A stretch of 64,000 bases of DNA from an uncultured bacterium (GCA_934636825.1 CAKUBG010000001.1:256080-320079), one strand, 5' to 3'; counted from the first letter of the stretch, positions 36,520-62,618 are shown. Program-made: numbers and translations. Notes: generated from the letters alone by a model not told the origin.

Positions 36520-36540
36520 GTCCATCGACACCTCCTAAGT

Positions 36541-36705
36541 GAACGCACTCCCGCCTATATAGAGGTGGGGGCTTCCTGCTTCTGCGAAAACGGCGCTGCA
36601 GCTCAAAAGAGCTGCAGCGACTTACGCTCTCTCCACAGGCGTAGATTCCCGTGCGACCCACGGTATTTTCCCGAAATAGGTTCGTCACGCCCGCCTCTAT
36701 CTTCA
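36541..36705 (-). repeat. Conserved ~170-nt structured element, copy A (in the atpE-atpF' spacer)
   Basis: Shares with copy B the cores GTGAACG(C/T)ACTCCCG and TTCCCGTGCGACCCACGGTAT(T/C)TTCC(C/T)GAA. The hairpins show compensatory changes between the copies. Its end abuts the atpF' RBS. Confidence 0.55.
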
Positions 36706-36858
36706 ATGCCCCAAAGCATAGAAGATTTTCAGCGAGATTAGGCTAAAAAGTTTCGAATTGATTGACAGTTTCCAGCATCAAATAAGAATGGAACTTTTTG
36801 CTTTCGCAATGGCGACAATCTATTCAAAAATTCTCACCTTCAAAGGGAACAAAAAAGC

Positions 36859-37224
36859 TTACTTGTTGATAAGCAACAAAGCGATAACCAAAGCATAAAT
36901 GCTTAAGGATTCGATGAAGGCCAAGCTCAAAAGGCACAAGCTCTGAATTTTACCGGAAGCTTCAGGGTTACGAGCTACACCTTCTACGGCCTTGGCGGCA
37001 GCATTGGCCTGACCAAAGCTACCAGCTACAGCGGCTAAGCCCAAAACGAGAGCAGCTGATAAAGCGTAGATAGCGCTGGTGCTCAAGAAATAGGATTCAT
37101 TGCCAGTAGCAGCGGCCGCAGCAGCGGTCTCAGCAGCTTCCTGAGCCAAAGCGGGCATAGAGCAGAAAACTCCCATGGCAAGCATAGATAAAATGCCAAA
37201 CAATTTTCCAACTTTAGAGTACAT
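36859..37224 (-). CDS. atpE: ATP synthase Fo subunit c with a ~35-aa signal-peptide-like N-terminal extension
   Basis: GGAGGT RBS 5 nt before the ATG. C-terminal 80 aa: '[19 protein letters not shown]...[16 protein letters not shown]', a hairpin with the ion-binding Glu. Confidence 0.85.
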
Positions 37225-37427
37225 TTTTTACCTCCGAAACAACTTAGAGACAATTTCCTAAATTTCTTCGCACACTTTAACCAGTGCCAGCAAAGCCACA
37301 ACTGGCAGTCCAAAGAATACGATCGCCAACATTTTTCGCAAAAAACGGTGGCGTCCTCTATTGTACCGCTGTTTGAAGAACAGTATAAGTGCGAGCTGCC
37401 TCTAAAAGCTTACCTTTTTATAGACTC

Positions 37428-38444
37428 CTAATGTTCGTCAGCTACTAAGTGGCTGATATAAGACAAAGTCAAGATACAAAATACAAAAGCCTGGATAAAA
37501 CCAGCCAAAGCGCCGATACAAGTAACGAAAAGGGAAACACCCCACATAGTGAAGCTCAAAATTGCGCCTTTAAACTTCACAGCCATACTGGCATCAGCGG
37601 CAAAAATAGAGCGGAAAAACTCTCCACCGACTCCGAGCAAATTGCTCTTAACTTCATGTTCTCCGTGGATATTTCCATAAAGACGGAAAGAGAGCGACAG
37701 CAAACGAGCAACTTCTTCAATGATATTTAAGCCGCAAAAGAGTACAGCCAAAGCGGGAACCAACACATAGCGCATTACTCCGCTAAACTGCTTCCATAAT
37801 TCCGGCACAGGCCCTAAATAGTGTTGCAACCAAACAAAAAAGCCCACAAACAATCCGCGTCCCTCTTCAAAATGAGGAGTAGCGGCCTTTTCTTTGGAAT
37901 CACTATCAGATGCCAAAGCAGACTTCTTTTGAGCAATCTTTTCGGCTTCAAGACGTTCTTGAAGAGGATCACCACAAATTTTTTGCTTCAGACCGTAATA
38001 GGTGAAAGCTATACAGGAGACGATAGCTAAAGCCAAAGTCGTATTGTAAGAGGCGGTGGGAGCCTCAAAAATAAGATGGGAGTGCCCTTCTTCTCCGCCA
38101 AAAAGCACGGCAGGCACAGGCAAAAGGCCGGACCAGTTGCACAAAAGAACGAATAAAAATATGGACATGGCAAAAGGAGCATAACGCTCACCGCGCTCTC
38201 CCATGAAAGAAGAGGCCATATCGTTAACAAATTCGTAGACGTGCTCAAATACAGCTCCCATACCTGTGGAAACAACACCAAGCTGCCGACGTCCTATAAC
38301 AGCTAAAATCAGAGCCGCAACTATTACTAAAATTGTAGAAGCGATTAAAATCTGGTTGCCAAGACTGGCAAATCCAGCAGCCTCAATGGGCGCTGAGGCT
38401 AAAAAAGCGCTCGCTGCAACTCCCCCCAAACAACTCCAGCCCAT
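37428..38444 (-). CDS. atpB: ATP synthase Fo subunit a
   Basis: 'LSLSFRLYGNIHGEH' carries the conserved Arg; multi-TM; 338 aa with an N-terminal extension. Confidence 0.85.
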   Translation of the reverse strand: MGWSCLGGVAASAFLASAPIEAAGFASLGNQILIASTILVIVAALILAVIGRRQLGVVSTGMGAVFEHVYEFVNDMASSFMGERGERYAPFAMSIFLFVLLCNWSGLLPVPAVLFGGEEGHSHLIFEAPTASYNTTLALAIVSCIAFTYYGLKQKICGDPLQERLEAEKIAQKKSALASDSDSKEKAATPHFEEGRGLFVGFFVWLQHYLGPVPELWKQFSGVMRYVLVPALAVLFCGLNIIEEVARLLSLSFRLYGNIHGEHEVKSNLLGVGGEFFRSIFAADASMAVKFKGAILSFTMWGVSLFVTCIGALAGFIQAFVFCILTLSYISHLVADEH

Positions 38445-38491
38445 AATTATTTTTCCTCCTTAGCCCGCCGCGATCCGGTTTGCTTCTGCCT

Positions 38492-38806
38492 TTAAATGAA
38501 AAGGACCACAAAGATAAGCCCAATCGAAACAGCAGTCACGATGCCCAAGCATACGGGCAATACGGGAAATGAAAGGAGCTTAAAGGCTCCATACACGCCT
38601 CCTATAACAACCAGCCAAGGTAAAAAGAACTGTGTTTTGAGGAATGCGCCGTCCATCTTCCCCCAGGAATTATTTAATTCCTTGTCAATCAAAGATTGAA
38701 AAAACTTATTTGACCACCAATACCAAGCTATCCAGTGCAAAATACCGATTACAGAGCCGCCAAGGAAAGCTTTTATATTAAGTGCAGATAAAGTATCCAT
38801 TATCAC
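38492..38806 (-). CDS. atpI: AtpI-like small membrane protein
   Basis: 104 aa, 3-4 TM helices, located immediately upstream of atpB. Confidence 0.45.
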   Translation of the reverse strand: MIMDTLSALNIKAFLGGSVIGILHWIAWYWWSNKFFQSLIDKELNNSWGKMDGAFLKTQFFLPWLVVIGGVYGAFKLLSFPVLPVCLGIVTAVSIGLIFVVLFI

Positions 38807-39666
38807 TTCTGGCCTTTGCTGCCGTCAGCAGGCGATGCTTTAGAGTCACTATTCTCGACTGTTGCCACCGACTGAGTAGCTTGAGTTTTGTCCTTGGCAA
38901 GCGGAACTACCGGCAAAGCTCCCTTAAGGAAGGGCTTCAATACTAACGCTCCTGAGTATAGTCCTAATATAACTCCAAAAATAATAAATGGGTAAGTCAA
39001 CCAAGCTAAACCACTATATTCAACAGCTCGCTGTCCCAACCACCAAAAAGCTAGAATAACAGCGGCCACAGTAAAACCGAAAGAAAAGACTATCCCCAAA
39101 GACTGAGCCATAAGGTTTTTCTCTTTGGGGCGCTCTTGGTAAGCTTTTATACGCTCACGCAAGGCTTCCGGAGAATCAGGCTCCGGACCAGCCACTTCGT
39201 CATTTTGCTTCTGTACAAGCGAAACAGCCTGTATTTCGGCTTTTTTCTCTGGAGCTGCAGCAAAGGTACTCACTTCATATTCATTTTTAGAAGTGCGACG
39301 AGCAGCAATCTCGGAAGCTCCGGAAGCCATCAGATCAAGTTGGGATCTTAAAGACTCTCCAAGTTGTTTATTTTGGATACCGGATAAACTTATGCTGTTC
39401 GGAGCCTTTGTTTCTGTAGTTGCCGCTTGATTGTTTTTAGGCTCTGCTGCTGTCAGCGACTCTGTGGAGCTAAGAGAGCTCGACAATAAAGATTCGCTTT
39501 TATGCTCAGTTTTTTTCAAAGCACTTTGAACCAAACGAGCCAATTCTTCTCGGTCAACTTCAGAATCGAGAGAATCGGCCAAAGAAGGGCCAGAGAAAAT
39601 AGCCTCCAGCTCTTCGACTGACAGTTCTTGATCGTTTAAGCGATTCTTATTTTCATCCATGGCCAC
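38803..39666 (-). CDS. AtpZ-like two-TM protein with a ~190-aa acidic/Ser-rich N-terminal extension
   Basis: C-terminal 'GIVFSFGFTVAAVILAFWWLGQ...GVILGLYSGALVL' resembles the AtpZ/ATPase_gene1 family. It is the first gene of the atp operon. Confidence 0.35.
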   Translation of the reverse strand: MAMDENKNRLNDQELSVEELEAIFSGPSLADSLDSEVDREELARLVQSALKKTEHKSESLLSSSLSSTESLTAAEPKNNQAATTETKAPNSISLSGIQNKQLGESLRSQLDLMASGASEIAARRTSKNEYEVSTFAAAPEKKAEIQAVSLVQKQNDEVAGPEPDSPEALRERIKAYQERPKEKNLMAQSLGIVFSFGFTVAAVILAFWWLGQRAVEYSGLAWLTYPFIIFGVILGLYSGALVLKPFLKGALPVVPLAKDKTQATQSVATVENSDSKASPADGSKGQK

Positions 39667-39678
39667 TATTTTAGCTTT

Positions 39679-40872
39679 TTATTTAGCAGCAAACGGTTCC
39701 GGAGCAGCGAACTCGTTGGGATAGAACTTATGCAAAATAGCTTCAGCAATGCGTTTAGAAGCCAAACCATCACCATAGGGGCTAGAAGTTTTGGCCATGC
39801 GCTCGTGCACATCGTCGTGTTCCAAAATGTCAGAAGCTAAAGCAAAAACTTTATCTTCATCACAACCAGCCAAAACGGCATTCCCCGATTCGATACCTTC
39901 CGGACGCTCGGTAGTTTCTCTCAATACAACTACAGGCACACCTAAGGAAGGAGCTTCTTCTTGAATGCCTCCAGAATCGGTCATAATTAAGTATGCCGAA
40001 CGCATTAAACGCAATAAATTTGTATAGGGCATAGGTTCTAAAAGGTGGACTCTAGGCAAACCTTGTAAAGCAGGGCAAACAACTTCACGCACTTTAGGAT
40101 TGGGGTGAACACTGAAAACTAACTCAATATCATCGAATTTTTCAGTTAAACGACGTAAGGCGCGGCAAATCTGGGCCATAGGCTGCCCCAAGTTTTCTCT
40201 TCTGTGAGTTTCGACTAAGACCATACGTCTACCAGAATTGGCTACAAAGTCCAAAGGATCGACTTTAGCCGCACTCACTTCCTCTTTGCAGGAAGCCACG
40301 GATTTCAAATCGGTGGGCACTCCCTCCGGCAAACCGGCAACAATAAGTTTAAGGGCGTCGGCTACAGTATTTCCAGTAATATAAGTATCCTTAAAAACCA
40401 AACCCTCTTGAGCTAAGTTATTGTAAGCCCACTTTGTGGGAGGAAATTGCATTTCAGCTAAACGAGAAAGCAAACGCCTATTCATTTCCTCAGGGAAGGG
40501 ATCATAAATTTTATCTGTACGCAAGCCAGCTTCAATGTGGCCAACGGGAATTTTCTGATAAAAAGCAGCCAAACCAGCTACAAAAGCGGTAGAAGTGTCG
40601 CCTTGCACTAAAACAATATCGGGGCGTTTCTCAAGTAAAACTGGCTCTAAACCTTGCAAAACACGTACGGTAATGCCAGTCAGAGTCTGATTGGCCTTCA
40701 TAGTATTTAAATCTACATCAGGTTCAATGTGGAAAAGATCCAAAACTTGATCCAAAATTTCTCGGTGCTGAGCGGTAACTACGGTAGTAACCTTAAACTT
40801 GGGATTAGCTTTAAGCTCTAAAACTACCGGAGCCATCTTGATAGCTTCCGGGCGAGTGCCGAAAACAACCAT
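39679..40872 (-). CDS. wecB: UDP-N-acetylglucosamine 2-epimerase (non-hydrolysing)
   Basis: 'VVFGTRPEAIKMAPV', 'HIEAGLRT', 'DSGGIQEEAPSLGVPVVVLR'. Start taken at the internal Met (MVVFGTRPE), which avoids the 43-nt overlap. Confidence 0.85.
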   Translation of the reverse strand: MVVFGTRPEAIKMAPVVLELKANPKFKVTTVVTAQHREILDQVLDLFHIEPDVDLNTMKANQTLTGITVRVLQGLEPVLLEKRPDIVLVQGDTSTAFVAGLAAFYQKIPVGHIEAGLRTDKIYDPFPEEMNRRLLSRLAEMQFPPTKWAYNNLAQEGLVFKDTYITGNTVADALKLIVAGLPEGVPTDLKSVASCKEEVSAAKVDPLDFVANSGRRMVLVETHRRENLGQPMAQICRALRRLTEKFDDIELVFSVHPNPKVREVVCPALQGLPRVHLLEPMPYTNLLRLMRSAYLIMTDSGGIQEEAPSLGVPVVVLRETTERPEGIESGNAVLAGCDEDKVFALASDILEHDDVHERMAKTSSPYGDGLASKRIAEAILHKFYPNEFAAPEPFAAK

Positions 40873-40898
40873 AACGTGAATTAAATTTTGCACTTTAA

Positions 40899-41882
40899 TT
40901 ACTCTCCTCTGCAAGTCAAATAGAACAAGGCCAAACCACAAAGTCCAAAGGCCGTGTTAATGGCATAGATAATCAAAACAACTTGACGCTGATTTAAACC
41001 GAGACTCAACAAACGATGATGCAAATGGCCTTTATCAGCTTGGAAAATAGGCTTATGAGCCAGCAAACGACGTAAAATTGCAAAAGTAGTATCGAAAATA
41101 GGCACAGCCATTAAGAATATAGGCAACAAGAAAGCAAAAGTAGCAGTGCTCTTAAGTAAACCGATTATAGACCAGCCTGCAAACATAAGGCCGAAGAACA
41201 AGCTACCTGTGTCCCCCATGAAGATTTGCGCCGGGTTGAAATTATAACGCAAAAATCCCAAAGAGCAGCCAGCTAAACAAGCCATAACCAGAGCAATTAC
41301 GAACTGTCCCTTAAGCAAGCTGACGACAAAAAATACGGAAGCGACCGTTAAAGAAACGCCGGCCAAAAGACCGTCTAATCCGTCAATTAAATTCAATGCA
41401 TTAGTGATACCGGCTATCCAAAAAAGCGTAACCAAGATACTTTGCCAAGTGCTTAAAAAGATAACTCCATACCAGGGCACGGTAATATAGTCGATTTTGA
41501 TACCGAAATAAAACATTACTAAACCGGTAACAAGTTGCAAAGCTAATTTGACTTTTGCAGGCATGCCATAGCGATCGTCAACCATACCTACAACTAAGAT
41601 AATTAAACCGCCCAGAGTCATACCGGTAAGCTGTGAAATTATGGCCGGAGTAACTGCTTCTCTAAATGATTGGGATAAACAAATAACACTGGCTGTAGCT
41701 AAAAAATAGCCACCGGCAACACCTAAACCGCCCCATAAAGGGATGGGCTGATGGTGCACCTTACGAGCATTGGGTTTATCCAGGGCGCCACAATAAACGG
41801 CTAAACGCTTTACCAGAGGCACCAAAAGCAAAGTATAAATAAACCCTAGCAAAAAAACTGCCAATTGGGCACGGACGGACAT
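40899..41882 (-). CDS. Glycosyltransferase family 4 (WecA/TagO-like UDP-GlcNAc:undecaprenyl-P GlcNAc-1-P transferase)
   Basis: 10-11 TM helices; 'NALNLIDGLDGLLAG' and 'MGDTGSLFFG' are MraY/WecA motifs. Confidence 0.75.
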   Translation of the reverse strand: MSVRAQLAVFLLGFIYTLLLVPLVKRLAVYCGALDKPNARKVHHQPIPLWGGLGVAGGYFLATASVICLSQSFREAVTPAIISQLTGMTLGGLIILVVGMVDDRYGMPAKVKLALQLVTGLVMFYFGIKIDYITVPWYGVIFLSTWQSILVTLFWIAGITNALNLIDGLDGLLAGVSLTVASVFFVVSLLKGQFVIALVMACLAGCSLGFLRYNFNPAQIFMGDTGSLFFGLMFAGWSIIGLLKSTATFAFLLPIFLMAVPIFDTTFAILRRLLAHKPIFQADKGHLHHRLLSLGLNQRQVVLIIYAINTAFGLCGLALFYLTCRGE

Positions 41883-42041
41883 CTTTCAGGCTCCTAATTC
41901 AGACAAAAAGTCAAACAGTCCAAAATGGTCGTTCTGCGCATATACGACGAATGTTAATTTCTGCCTTTGCAACGCAAAAAATAATCGGCGCGGAGAAGTG
42001 TAGCTTATCACGCGCCGATTGATAAAGGCATCATGCTGAGA

Positions 42042-43236
42042 TTACATTAAACTTATGCCCCAGCCTCCACCTTTACTGTCTTCATAATCTTTAACAAAGC
42101 GCTTTATTAGAGCATCTATTTTTTGCTCCCAACCGGGATTGAGCGGGTTGACGCTGTCGAGTAAAACAGGAGATAAAATACCTTGTTTTTCGTAAAATTG
42201 CACACACATTTCGTCTAAATTTTTTACTACTCGAAGAGAAAATGGAGTAGAACAAGCCAGAGTAAACTCAAAAAAATCTAAATTTTGTGGCAAATACGAA
42301 GTATGACATTCGTTAGCATATTTTTGAATAAGATCATTGAGATAGAAATACAATCTATCACGTAATTTAACTACAGCATTTTCAAATTGTTCAGCTTGTC
42401 CATTTTCCGGCAAACTGACAAAAACTCCAGGCAAGCTCTTTAAATCGTTATACATAGCTTCAGCACTAGCATAGCGATCTTCCGGCCAAGTACCCAGAGA
42501 GTTCCAGATAATTTGTTGCAAATCTTCAGGAACTTTAACACCAAAGTCTTCAAAAGCTGGGAAGTCCCAATCTTTGGGTTTGCGACCGGTAAGCAATTCA
42601 TGCATTGTCGCTCCTAAAGCATAAAGATCGCTGCTGGGCTCAGGCTGTCCTTGCTGTTGCTCAGCAGGAGCGTAACCAGGAGTGCCAATCCAATAGCCAT
42701 CTGCGGGGTTGGTTACTCTGGAGATACCAAAGTCAATCAGCATTAAACGCTGATCGCGACTGCGTACTAAAAGGTTGGAAGGTTTTATATCGCGGTGAGT
42801 AATAGCAGGATTGCGACTGTGCAAATACTTTAAAGCATCTAAAGTTTGTAAAGCCCAACCAACCACAGATTGTACTGGTAAGCCAGGGTTGCCTTCTTCT
42901 TTGAGAATAGTAGCCAAGTCTTTGCCTTCTATGTATTCCATAGCAAAGAAGAAAGAATTGTCGCAAATAAAAGAGCTGTAAATTTTGGGAATGCCAGGAT
43001 GGTTTAAAGTTTGCATGACTTGCACTTCGGAAAGGAAGCGATCTATTGCCGCCTGACGTTCGGCAGAGCGAGCTGAAGAATCGAGCATTTGCTTTAAAGC
43101 GCAAAGCCGATCGTTGACCATACGATCTTTAACTTCATAGACAGCGCCCATACCGCCTGCCTTGATCGGCTTCACAACATAGAAACGACCGTCCAGTAAA
43201 GTGCCGGGTTCTAAAGTAAAATCACCTGTATGCATT
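42042..43236 (-). CDS. Hanks-type Ser/Thr protein kinase with a unique C-terminal domain
   Basis: 'VYEVKD...LCALK', 'HRDIKPSNLLV', 'DFGIS', 'GTPGYAPAE'. The ATG (MHTGDF) is preferred over the tracked TTG at 43323. Confidence 0.8.
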
Positions 43237-43338
43237 GCTTTGGATATTAACCGCCCTTTGCTGCTCGCGCCAATATACTCATCTCTTACCCATAATGGCA
43301 CGAGACAAACACATCGGATATACAAACCTTATTTTGGT

Positions 43339-43520
43339 GAACGTACTCCCGTCTACAGAGACGGAAGCTTCCTGATCACGCGCAAGCTATCTTGTACTTT
43401 GCCAAAAAGGCAACAACTTGCGCTTTATTCACAGGCCTAAATTTCCGTGCGACCCACGGTATCTTCCTGAAGTAACTTCGCCACTTCCACCTTTATCCCC
43501 CACCTGTGAAGCGGGGGACT
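43339..43520 (-). repeat. Conserved ~170-nt structured element, copy B (kinase 5' region, downstream of mce)
   Basis: See copy A. Identical 18-mer CCGTGCGACCCACGGTAT. Flanked by 'ccttatttt' and 'aaataagg'. Confidence 0.55.
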
Positions 43521-43535
43521 TAAGGCGAAATAAGG

Positions 43536-45017
43536 TTAGAAGCGTTTACCGGCACCTATAACCGGAGCACTGTTATGTTTATCAGTAACATCACGTACAC
43601 CGCCGTAAATATACCAGTCGGCAGGCAAAACAACTTTGCCCAAAACGTCAACTTTTATATCACGCGGATCATATACATCCAACGACGTTTCCAAACGCTT
43701 ATCAAAGAACCAAGCATCGGCGCCCACACCAACTTTGGAGCGTACAATACCACCGCGCAGCCGCCAATTATCCCAGGCTTTGCCAGCTTGCAAATTGAGC
43801 AAATTCTCATTACCTATGGAATCGAGACCGACTCTGAAAGTAAGCGGCCCACCGTAAGGGAAGAGCCAAGCATTGGCGTTGGTAGAAAGTTGGCCATTGC
43901 TCATGTTGAGCTCTTCAGCTACATCACCTTGGAAGAGAGGACGATCTCCTTTGCTTAAGCCAGCGGGGAATTTATCAACGGCACCCTCCACCTTTTGAGT
44001 TACGCGCTTAACCGATCCAGAAGCTTCGCGGACGTTGTGTACAGTTTCGCGCAAATCTTCTTGAACTTGAGGATCGCCGGTTACTGTGCGAATATCTCCA
44101 GCAATTCCGGCCACTTCTTCACTGACTTTGCGGATATTAGCTGCAATAGCCAAAATATCGCCGCGCATTTGCGGATCGTCGGCAACATTTTCTAACGCTG
44201 AAGCGGTATTTTTCAAGCTGGAAGACATCTGACGCAAGTTCATAACAATAGCATTCAAGTTGGAAGCATTGCCCTGAACCAAATTATTTACTGTAGAAGT
44301 GGTATTTCTAACATTGTTGCCTATTTCAGCAGCATCGGAACGAAGCTGGGCTACGGTAGCAGAAGCGTTATCTATCACGTTTTCCATCGTACCGGCAATA
44401 TTAGCCATGCGCACACGCAATTCGCTCATTAACTGACGAGCGTCACCGCTGGCATCTTTTAAATTGGTAGAAATATCTCTGATATTGTTAACGGTAACTT
44501 TTACGTCTTTCTTAAAGGTGTCGTCACCGACTATTTCATTTAAAGCAGCGATGGAGCCGCGCAATTCTTCCATCAGTTGACTGCCCTCTTGAGCCAATTG
44601 TTCAAGAGAAATAGGAGTAGTTCCGATAACTACTTCATCAGCCGCAATAGGCTCAACTCCTTCAGGCACGGCGCCAGGCTTAATATCTAACCACTTATCA
44701 CCCAAAATGTTGGAAGCTATAGTGTAGACAAAATAATCGGAGCTAAAAAGTTTGGCTCCATCGCGAGTAACTACGATAGTTACATCAACGCGATTTTGAG
44801 AGTTAAGCTCGATATCAGAAACGTAGCCGATGCGTACACCGGAAAGATGTACCGACGAGCGGACTTGCAAGCCTTGAACATCATCAAACATGACGTGATA
44901 TTTTTCACCCACATCAGGCCCGACTTTACCAATTTGCAAGAAGACAAGGCCAAGCAGAATAAAGGCCACTACTGTCATCATGCCTACTCTTGCCGCAGGA
45001 CTAAGCCCCATTTTCAC
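43536..45017 (-). CDS. MCE/MlaD-family substrate-binding protein (493 aa)
   Basis: N-terminal TM, an MCE domain ('GLQVRSSVHLSGVRIGYV...VDVTIVV') and a long helical C-terminus. Confidence 0.75.
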   Translation of the reverse strand: MKMGLSPAARVGMMTVVAFILLGLVFLQIGKVGPDVGEKYHVMFDDVQGLQVRSSVHLSGVRIGYVSDIELNSQNRVDVTIVVTRDGAKLFSSDYFVYTIASNILGDKWLDIKPGAVPEGVEPIAADEVVIGTTPISLEQLAQEGSQLMEELRGSIAALNEIVGDDTFKKDVKVTVNNIRDISTNLKDASGDARQLMSELRVRMANIAGTMENVIDNASATVAQLRSDAAEIGNNVRNTTSTVNNLVQGNASNLNAIVMNLRQMSSSLKNTASALENVADDPQMRGDILAIAANIRKVSEEVAGIAGDIRTVTGDPQVQEDLRETVHNVREASGSVKRVTQKVEGAVDKFPAGLSKGDRPLFQGDVAEELNMSNGQLSTNANAWLFPYGGPLTFRVGLDSIGNENLLNLQAGKAWDNWRLRGGIVRSKVGVGADAWFFDKRLETSLDVYDPRDIKVDVLGKVVLPADWYIYGGVRDVTDKHNSAPVIGAGKRF

Positions 45018-51037: not shown

Positions 51038-51420
51038 TTGACGTGAGACGGGCAGCTGCGGGAGTTTTTATAGAGCTCCTGAGGAAAGTCCGGGCTCCCT
51101 AGGGCAGGGTGCTGGATAACGTCCAGTAGGGGCAACCTTCAGGAAAGTGCCACAGAAATGTTAGACCGCCTGACTTTCGGTAGAAAATTCAGGTAAGGGT
51201 GCAACGGCGGGGTAAGAGCCCACCGGCAGTGCGGAGACGTGCTGGCCAGGTAAACCCCACTTGGAGCAAGATCAGCAGAAGGAGCGTCTTAAGCGCCCGG
51301 CGGCCCGTCGGATCCCTTCTCAAAAGATCGCTAGAGGAACATGGCAACATGTTTCACAGATAAATGGCTGCCATTTGCTTTATGAGCAAATACAGAACCC
51401 GGCTTATAGTCTCACGTCCT
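51038..51420 (+). ncRNA. rnpB: RNase P RNA, bacterial type A
   Basis: P4 halves GAGGAAAGUCCGGGCUCC and ACAGAACCCGGCUUA. 'GGUAAACCCCACUUGGAGCAA'. P1 pairs GACGUGAGAC (51040-51049) with GUCUCACGUC (51409-51418). Confidence 0.9.
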
Positions 51421-51548
51421 TCTCCTTCATAATTCTAACCTAACGTATATACATAGCGCTGCGCCATTGAAGCGGTAAACTCTGGTCAGGCGGGTTTTTC
51501 TTCTGTGCTGATGGTCGCAGACCTCAAATTAAGGAGACAACTCTAATA

Positions 51549-62164: not shown

Positions 62165-62618
62165 GGACCTTTCGTCTGCTAAAAACTGAACTAACCACGA
62201 CTTAAAAGTCGTAAGTTTCCCGATAAAAAAGTCTATTAAGACACAACATTACCAGGCTATCCCCGCAGTTCTTGCGGTTCCAAAATTCCTCTTGCATTCT
62301 TCCCTCTGTTTTTATTACCTGCCCAAGCTAAAAGAGTGAATAGATGAATGCATCCAAAGCTTATACCTATTGCCAGAGCTTCTAATTACGCATTTAAACT
62401 ATATTAATTATTACATTTTTATATACAAAATTAATTATATTCACTCGATAATTGGCTATAACCAGTATTAAATCAAAAAAATAGACAATTCTAAATAACT
62501 ACATAATAGTAAAATACAATGTCTAATTTTAATAAAAACTAACTTAGTGAAAGTAAATCCAATAACAGTTAGTTCTAACTTGCCTACTTATCGTATTTTT
62601 TTAACCTTATCAAGCCTA

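Follow-up and report, generated by a model that had tools for sequence, protein, structure and literature searches.

The omega RNA that serves the TnpB protein of ISDra2 is built on a 116-nt scaffold in which stem 2 is followed by stem 3a (7 bp), by stem 3b, which is flexible and dispensable, and by stem 4, and in which GGAAU pairs with a 3' GUUCA to form a pseudoknot; in TnpB systems the approximately 16 nt that follow the right end of the transposon act as the guide (PMC10097598). Palindrome-associated transposable elements (PATEs) have been noted to "often encode omega RNAs", which would require TnpB in trans (PMC10055086). In this study, we analyzed two copies, here called A and B, of a structured repeat in a 64,000-nt stretch of DNA from an uncultured bacterium (GCA_934636825.1 CAKUBG010000001.1:256080-320079; the whole stretch is referred to as the window). 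Copy A occupies the spacer between atpE and atpF' in an ATP synthase (atp) operon, and copy B lies between a gene for an MlaD-like protein and a gene for a Ser/Thr kinase. As far as identity and origin are concerned, it is highly likely that both are non-autonomous, protein-less derivatives of an IS200/IS605 insertion sequence (IS), full copies of which carry tnpB and often tnpA, and that both retain an omega RNA scaffold; our views on the present role of copy A are far more tentative.

The family to which the two copies belong shares with the ISDra2 omega RNA (Deinococcus radiodurans; PDB 8H1J and 8EXA) its location at the right end of the element, a GUUCA(C/A) terminus followed by the guide, and an identical order of parts, namely, a 5-bp stem 2 (designated P2 here), a 7-bp stem 3a (P3), a variable stem 3b (P4), stem 4 (P5), and strands that could form the GGAAU/GUUCA pseudoknot. 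It differs in its diverged sequence and in its flanking motif, which is TTTA rather than TTGAT, and the window copies have no tnpB in cis. IS608 of Helicobacter pylori, as known from the work of Barabas and Ton-Hoang, is said to be cleaved approximately 20 nt 5' of its left-end (LE) hairpin and to end approximately 9 nt 3' of its right-end (RE) hairpin in TCA(C/A), with no target duplication; the geometry of the ends is similar in our family, but the target is TTTA rather than TTAC. In other bacteria, structured repeats that are transcribed together with their operons (the REP/BIME sequences of E. coli and the Correia elements of Neisseria) may alter operon expression and the stability or processing of mRNA, and these are likewise short, structured, and sense oriented within operons; they are unrelated to our repeats in sequence and origin, and a similar effect of copy A on atp is purely hypothetical. 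The PATE-like ISGst family of Geobacillus stearothermophilus, described by Meers et al. (PMC10055086), is also protein-less, with LE and RE hairpins, a position adjacent to a transposon-associated motif (TAM), several copies per genome, and, often, an omega RNA that would need TnpB in trans. The window copies represent a different IS lineage in a different host, gut Xenobia, and one of them is fixed at an orthologous atp site in six species, with an RNA part that appears to be conserved above the synonymous rate. No report of a PATE-like copy fixed and conserved in an atp operon was found in the literature, and a literature search for the core sequence found no paper that contained it.

Relationship of the repeats to tnpB-carrying elements

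The two repeats lie on the minus strand at 36539-36743 (copy A, 205 nt) and 43337-43536 (copy B, 200 nt) and align over approximately 200 nt with a mean column identity of 78%. Two cores are shared exactly, the 18-mer CCGTGCGACCCACGGTAT (36649-36666 and 43445-43462) and GTGAACGYACTCCCG (36539-36553 and 43337-43351), and neither occurs anywhere else in the window, the number of matches to be expected from chance alone being 0.01 and 0.06, respectively; the long identical cores announced in the original prediction are therefore exact and far beyond coincidence. The extents given there (36541-36705 and 43339-43520) had the right location but the wrong limits, each copy having approximately 70 nt more of left-end sequence.

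When the 18-mer was scanned over one genome per bacterial species, 83 loci were returned, 8 of them chance matches in unrelated coding sequence and approximately 75 homologous over the whole core. The hosts of the latter belong to several phyla and include gut and rumen Selenomonas, Megasphaera, Mitsuokella, Pectinatus, Mogibacterium, Anaerovoracaceae, Succinatimonas, Desulfovibrionaceae, and Xenobia metagenome-assembled genomes (MAGs), among others. Many homologous loci fall at contig ends, as expected of a repeated mobile element. In approximately 40 loci, tnpB lies directly 5' of the element in the minus sense of the window and ends 10 to 40 nt before the shared core; by Pfam, the product of this gene (OrfB_IS605, Cas12f1-like_TNB, and HTH_OrfB_IS605) is TnpB. 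The core is common to two clades of TnpB, with at least 72% and approximately 42% identity to the protein of Megasphaera hexanoica (locus L026) used as the query, and several elements also carry an IS200-type Y1 tnpA upstream (for example, L002 7135-7590). Homology among all copies stops exactly at GTTCAC (GTTCAA in the second clade), and the flanks beyond this point are unrelated. To judge from its position, which runs from at or just after the tnpB stop codon to the end of the transposon, the core is the right end of an IS200/IS605 element and is predicted to encode the omega RNA of TnpB. Downstream genes differ at each independent locus, and a neighbor is kept only by the vertically inherited atp copy.

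The TnpB proteins of this lineage are full-length relatives of ISDra2 TnpB (8H1J and 8EXA; E value of about 1e-78), and their protein clusters hold more than 1,000 members. Covariance model R1, which was built from an alignment of 51 distinct copies (A3), gave only 7.6 bits on the IS605 of Bacillus mycoides, whose TnpB is 53% identical and whose layout is the same, ending in GTTCAC; the model is thus restricted to the present sub-lineage. This IS605/omega RNA lineage of gut and rumen bacteria is very widespread and is without an Rfam family. At L026 1380-2830 in M. hexanoica, a copy with tnpB only interrupts an ORF (open reading frame) for a HEPN-like protein beside a nucleotidyltransferase gene, and the joined flanks, read by eye, restore the reading frame (...DGVDFK/KHAGVISYF...).

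Upstream of the core, each window copy has approximately 70 nt that match the left end of full elements, in which a terminus, (A/G)CCTRATYC, is followed by an outer stem, an internal loop (GAAGTC/GATGAA), an inner hairpin, and then approximately 30 nt from the 3' end of tnpB. The left end of copy A reads GCCTAATCTCGC..., a hairpin, GAAGAT..GGCGGG, and approximately 30 nt with homology to the end of the tnpB gene on its 3' side (GACGAAC...); that of the full element in M. hexanoica reads ACCTGATTCTGCAAGAAGTC-hairpin-GAGATGAATTGCAGG. The outer stem covaries between subfamilies (CTGCAA/TTGCAG versus CCGCC/GGCGG), and TTTA or a one-base variant stands 5' of the left end at approximately 17 independent sites, as judged by eye, with no target duplication seen. 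Both window copies have hairpins at both ends and no coding capacity within their 200 to 205 nt. As read from the sequence, they are PATE-like mini-elements of IS200/IS605 that have lost tnpB and kept the LE hairpin and the whole putative omega RNA scaffold. The original prediction had listed a small noncoding RNA family and a repeat resembling a miniature inverted-repeat transposable element (MITE) as separate options, and both apply, in the form of a protein-less mini-transposon with an omega RNA scaffold. Several copies occur in one genome, with two in the window, four in MAG CAKTUZ01, two in HGM23016, and four in Succinatimonas hippei SFGV01. The parts of the two window copies are as follows.

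36539-36743, minus strand: copy A, a complete mini-element (left-end part plus putative omega RNA scaffold) in the atpE-atpF' spacer, from the multi-copy alignment and the empty site
36744-36747, minus strand: TTTA, a TAM-like target motif directly 5' of copy A, from approximately 17 independent insertion sites read by eye
36670-36743, minus strand: LE part of copy A, from homology to the left end of full elements
36539-36669, minus strand: predicted omega RNA scaffold core of copy A, ending in GTTCAC at the transposon right end (R1, 142.8 bits)
36649-36663, minus strand: hairpin P1 of copy A, CCGUG-GGUCG-CACGG, identical in 51 of 51 sequences
36575-36639, minus strand: P2 (CCUGU/GCAGG), P3 (7 bp), and the variable P4 hairpin of copy A, from covariation; these correspond to ISDra2 stems 2, 3a, and 3b
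36547-36572, minus strand: hairpin P5 of copy A, which corresponds to omega RNA stem 4 and to the subterminal palindrome of the right end, from covariation
36541-36544, minus strand: GUUC, 3' strand of the proposed pseudoknot, with its partner GAAU at 36645-36648, from homology to ISDra2
36523-36538, minus strand: flank of copy A in the guide position, UUAGGAGGUGUCGAUG, made up of the translation signals of atpF' (Shine-Dalgarno sequence and start codon), identical in six of six orthologues
43337-43536, minus strand: copy B, a complete mini-element in the spacer between the MlaD-like and Ser/Thr kinase genes, from R1 (99.8 bits) and LE homology
43337-43465, minus strand: predicted omega RNA scaffold core of copy B, from R1, with a strongly diverged central domain
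43537-43540, minus strand: TCTA, a TAM variant directly 5' of copy B, from reading of the sequence
43325-43336, minus strand: 3' flank of copy B, CAAAATAAGGTT, the reverse complement (11 of 12 positions) of the LE terminus at 43526-43537

In order of transcription, the first neighborhood comprises atpB, atpE, copy A, atpF', atpF, atpH, and atpA, and the second comprises the MlaD-like gene, copy B, and the Ser/Thr kinase gene, all on the minus strand, with both copies in the sense orientation of their host operons. A position immediately 5' of a gene start, as originally proposed for both, holds for copy A, which adjoins the ribosome-binding site of atpF' (GTTCAC followed by TTAGGAGGTGTCGATG) and ends 3 nt from the Shine-Dalgarno sequence GGAGG, but not for copy B, which ends approximately 100 nt upstream of the kinase ATG (43235). 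R1 found two copies only in the window, and a candidate third copy at 62186-62283 on the minus strand, upstream of an ORF (18.4 bits; E value of 0.003), lacks the conserved core and is probably a chance match. An Rfam scan, as the original prediction had suggested, was run on both copies; with Rfam 15 at the gathering threshold, neither matched a family, and the sole match in the window was the RNase P RNA (bacterial class A; 51040-51422, plus strand; 281 bits). A permissive scan aligned gyrA RNA (RF01740) with the central hairpin of copy A alone, at 21 bits (E value of 0.012; gathering score of 45), and with nothing in copy B, and this match was rejected as that of a generic hairpin.

Several observations concern other members of the family and the flanks of copy B. 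A 48-nt micro-element directly follows the kinase stop codon in Candidatus Bruticola sp. GCA_051874695.1 (L088 4388-4435); preceded by TTTAA, it consists of the start of a left end (CCCATCCTGCAAGAAGTC), one hairpin, and a right-end tail (GTACGTTCAC), and, by its composition, it descends from the same IS family through extreme deletion. A public Logan contig from the same species as the window (L084, positions 1 to 118) begins inside copy A, which indicates that the repeat breaks short-read assemblies. The flanks of copy B, ccttatttt and aaataagg, to which attention had been drawn, do form a genuine inverted repeat but are not a target-site duplication: CAAAATAAGGTT repeats copy B's own LE terminus inversely (11 of 12 positions). 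An analogous repeat of 8 nt lies 13 nt past the right end at locus L045, and copy A has one of only 5 nt. Target-site duplications, which the original prediction treated as the mark of a MITE, do not apply here, since IS200/IS605 insertion takes place on the 3' side of a short motif, in this case TTTA, and produces no duplication. The stop codon of the MlaD-like gene (TAA, 43536-43538) is completed by the first base of copy B, and in relatives free of the element this gene ends at the same codon position with TGA or TAG.

Fold and strand of the RNA core

A model of five helices was evaluated on the 51 sequences of A3 against controls in which the pairing partners were slid and against shuffled alignments. 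In the model, 91.3% of cells are paired, compared with 37 to 51% in the slid controls; both partners have changed in 19 pairs, and none of these measures was matched in any shuffle. P2 is paired in 98% of cells, P3 in 90%, and P4 in 83%, with compensatory change in all 11 pairs of P4; P5 is paired in 92% of cells, and seven of its nine pairs carry compensatory changes. P2 (CCUG/CAGG) encloses a variable domain of 55 nt in both copies, and the distance from P5 to the end of the transposon is 8 nt in copy A and 9 nt in the family consensus. The strands of the GAAU/GUUC pseudoknot are paired in 94.6% of cells and are nearly invariant. The compensatory differences between hairpins and the variable domain closed by CCUG/CAGG, first noticed in a comparison of two sequences, are thus borne out by covariation among 51 homologues, and the conserved RNA structure deduced from them was the right reading.

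G.U pairs are frequent when the sequences are read in the minus sense (44, 42, 36, 31, and 30 sequences at five pairs), and since these would be A.C mismatches on the other strand, the RNA is assigned to the minus strand, the same as tnpB. An RNA from the plus strand was considered, as the terminal hairpin of copy A pairs perfectly on that strand and single-sequence folds are ambiguous, and was rejected on the basis of the family-wide G.U pairs and the strand of tnpB. Many cells of P3 and P4 are non-canonical in copy B. All mini-elements from Xenobia have an A.C or U.U mismatch in the terminal hairpin (A3 columns 107/128; window positions 36566 and 36553), where copies linked to tnpB have G-C or A-U, which suggests descent from one founder mini-element or a relaxed constraint.

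Empty sites and rates of change

According to its AtpF' homologues, the host is a gut member of Xenobia (Vulcanimicrobiota/Eremiobacterota) close to Candidatus Bruticola. Six species-level genomes (the window, L009, L013, L019, L022, and L057) have copy A inserted at exactly the same position. In a Ca. Bruticola genome (L086) whose AtpF' is 86% identical, the element is absent, and the atpE-atpF' spacer measures 153 nt (...GAGGCTTTA directly followed by TTTAGGAGGTGTCGATGG). Filled sites read ...GGCTTTA[element]TTAGGAGGTGTCGATGG, and the empty site reads TTTA followed by TTTAGGAGG, a difference of one T from the filled flanks, so that comparison of the two defines the insertion point to one T. 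The atp spacer, rightly singled out in the original prediction as unusually long, has 333 bp, and this length is explained by an ancestral spacer of approximately 115 nt and an insertion of 205 nt. The insertion into the atpE-atpF' spacer would predate the divergence of at least six species of gut Xenobia. The site of copy B has a narrower distribution: the copy is present in L091 (MlaD protein 99% and DNA approximately 94% identical; 107.8 bits) and absent from the corresponding spacer of L088 and L090 (MlaD proteins 86% and 78% identical), where the spacer is too diverged to give an exact empty site; a decayed copy B was looked for in L090, and none was detectable.

Among the six atp orthologues, mean pairwise identity is 0.905 for the RNA core. 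The third codon positions of atpE and atpF' have values of 0.78 to 0.80, the left-end part has a value of 0.77, and the remaining, indel-rich spacer has a value of 0.74. We compared the core with third codon positions in pairs of genomes by Fisher's test, excluding the 18-mer and counting gaps as differences. In five genomes, the core diverges by 3.6 to 10.9% and third positions diverge by 12 to 26%, and the core is significantly slower in nine of the ten pairs (P values of 6e-3 to 2e-6; P = 0.16 for the closest pair, the window and L009). The left-end part diverges at approximately the synonymous rate. Changes at paired positions among the five orthologues keep the pairing and are mostly C-to-U opposite G in the minus sense. 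Concerted evolution or gene conversion was rejected as the cause of this conservation: orthologues cluster together, and paralogues from the same genome are only 73 to 83% identical. The RNA core of copy A is apparently kept by purifying selection in five of the six species. The core of copy B, on the other hand, is 0.853 identical to that of L091, against 0.82 to 0.83 at third positions, and the 100 nt between copy B and the kinase start are 95% identical to L091; copy B is, to judge from these rates, a lineage-restricted relic that evolves neutrally.

The surroundings of copy A provide some further observations. The ancestral part of the spacer (window 36748-36858) varies from approximately 115 to 150 nt, is indel-rich, and is wholly deleted in L022 and L057; the version in Ca. 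Bruticola is largely unrelated to that of the window except near both ends. The ORF of the ATP synthase c subunit (36859-37224, minus strand) specifies 121 amino acids, including an N-terminal extension of approximately 45 amino acids that is signal-peptide-like and then Ala-rich; this extension is kept in six of six orthologues, and the NCBI annotation in a Ca. Bruticola genome gives only 70 amino acids. The spacer between atpB and atpE (37225-37427) has approximately 200 nt of noncoding sequence with blocks conserved across Xenobia genomes (alignment columns 115 to 256) and no Rfam match. Loci L009 and L045 come from CAAGRW01 (HGM23016), which is labeled "Candidatus Riflebacteria" at NCBI, yet its atp locus is 93 to 96% identical to that of the window; this label looks wrong, the protein relatives being labeled Ca. 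Bruticola or Ca. Xenobium (Vulcanimicrobiota).

Possible roles of the atp copy

We suggest, tentatively and with distinctly less than even confidence, that the atp copy is an orphan omega RNA that was domesticated after the loss of tnpB and of mobility and was kept by selection, either for a TnpB partner encoded elsewhere or for structural control of ATP synthase expression. TnpA supplied in trans would have inserted the mini-elements as single strands, by the "peel and paste" mechanism known for the family, 3' of TTTA and without target duplication. Co-transcription of both copies with their host operons is to be expected from their sense orientation. The resulting RNA would carry, after the scaffold, a "guide" taken from the 3' flank; in copy A, this guide would be UUAGGAGGUGUCGAUG, the ribosome-binding site and start codon of atpF', and with a cognate TnpB the RNA of copy A could direct cleavage of the vacant site. 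In copy A, the core has been selectively retained and the left end has not, which speaks against self-maintenance of a transposon as the sole explanation. Among the possible functions, a cis role in the atp transcript is placed a little ahead of the use of copy A by TnpB in trans, with the absence of any function as a serious third option, and none of the three reaches an even chance.

A number of results weigh against our account of the two copies. Searches with tblastn revealed no tnpB in the 64-kb window (best E value of 4); neither tnpB nor tnpA was seen in the window or in the Xenobia loci examined, so that a TnpB partner is hypothetical. The core of L019 diverges at the neutral rate. Sampling of the orthologues relied on an exact match to the 18-mer, so that conserved copies are favored and lineages with decayed ones may have been missed, and the 10 pairwise tests are not phylogenetically independent. 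Folding predictions pair approximately 80% of the ribosome-binding site of atpF' whether the element is present or, as in the empty-site control, absent; they give no signal of an effect and did not separate the candidate roles of copy A. With regard to the structure, P1 is invariant (51 of 51 sequences) and carries zero covariation information, its invariance being also forced by the 18-mer sampling; P1 and the pseudoknot are, as a consequence of invariance, placed by homology. P5 of copy A has two mismatches, A.C and C.A, and a by-eye search for an equivalent of ISDra2 stem 1 found no consistent pairing.

The explanation that we place first, although we consider it possible rather than probable, is that copy A has been co-opted to act in cis within the atp mRNA. 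Its compact, pseudoknotted fold, downstream of atpE and directly before the atpF' ribosome-binding site, would be kept either because its unfolding would disturb translation of atpF' or because the message is stabilized or processed at this point, between the coding regions for the high-copy c subunit and for the b subunits. The orientation of copy A, which is sense within an essential operon and places its end 3 nt from GGAGG, is compatible with such a role, as are the purifying selection that appears to act on the RNA core and not on the left end used in transposition, the preservation of pairing in the mRNA sense, and the lack of conservation of copy B, which lies approximately 100 nt from the start of its downstream gene. 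A generic structural role, however, should allow more change in unpaired segments than was observed, the constraint is relaxed in L019 despite the same flanks, and Ca. Bruticola does without the element; the equal predicted accessibility of the ribosome-binding site with and without it also speaks against this role.

It is rather unlikely, but deserving of consideration, that copy A is a working orphan omega RNA. A TnpB encoded elsewhere would use the 16- to 20-nt flank to cut the vacant site, TTTA followed by TTAGGAGGTGTCGATG, after excision, and recombination would then restore the element, as in the homing of IS605. The scaffold is complete relative to the minimal 116-nt scaffold of ISDra2; the nucleotides kept among the atp orthologues are those conserved across the family, including unpaired linkers, and changes concentrate in stem 3b and in loops, which are dispensable in ISDra2. 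The reconstructed vacant site has TTTA, and PATE omega RNAs that act with TnpB in trans have been proposed (PMC10055086). Against this stand, in addition to the missing tnpB in the window, the gene-less state of all nine exact matches to the 18-mer in five species-representative Xenobia genomes and the absence of Xenobia-labeled TnpB from the 120 closest homologues listed, which is weak evidence. Moreover, excision requires the left end, and this part drifts neutrally; homing cannot select for the RNA if excision does not occur.

Equally doubtful in our estimation is the view that both copies are inert relics and that copy A only seems to be conserved, whether through biased sampling, a low mutation rate at this locus, or the small number of lineages. 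Copy B is neutral and so is the divergence of L019; the selection of orthologues by the exact 18-mer, the mismatches in P5 of copy A, and the failure to find a partner protein all fit this view. The adjacent left end and spacer, however, diverge at or above the synonymous rate, which makes a low local mutation rate unlikely, and the rate test excludes the 18-mer and is still significant in 9 of 10 pairs among five genomes, with changes at paired positions that keep the pairing. Finally, the origin of the repeat as a host-native cis-regulatory leader, processing element, riboswitch, or small RNA family unrelated to mobile DNA, the first option of the original prediction, fits a structured RNA with covariation that lies 5' of genes in the sense orientation in both copies but is very improbable, given the lack of an Rfam match, the fact that, in several phyla, transposons with tnpB terminate on their 3' side in the same sequence (approximately 40 tnpB-linked loci), the different flanking genes at each locus, and relatives without the element at both sites, with an exact empty site at atp; a secondary cis role of copy A is compatible with this.

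In summary, an unannotated structured repeat and a 333-bp spacer in an atp operon have both been traced to a known type of mobile DNA, and the repeat should therefore not be catalogued as a new regulatory RNA. A lineage that is not covered by Rfam now has a covariance model and a structure. If the purifying selection on copy A is real, the atp operon of these gut Xenobia would provide a natural case of a transposon guide-RNA scaffold that has been retained without its nuclease, which would bear on how RNAs of the TnpB type become domesticated.

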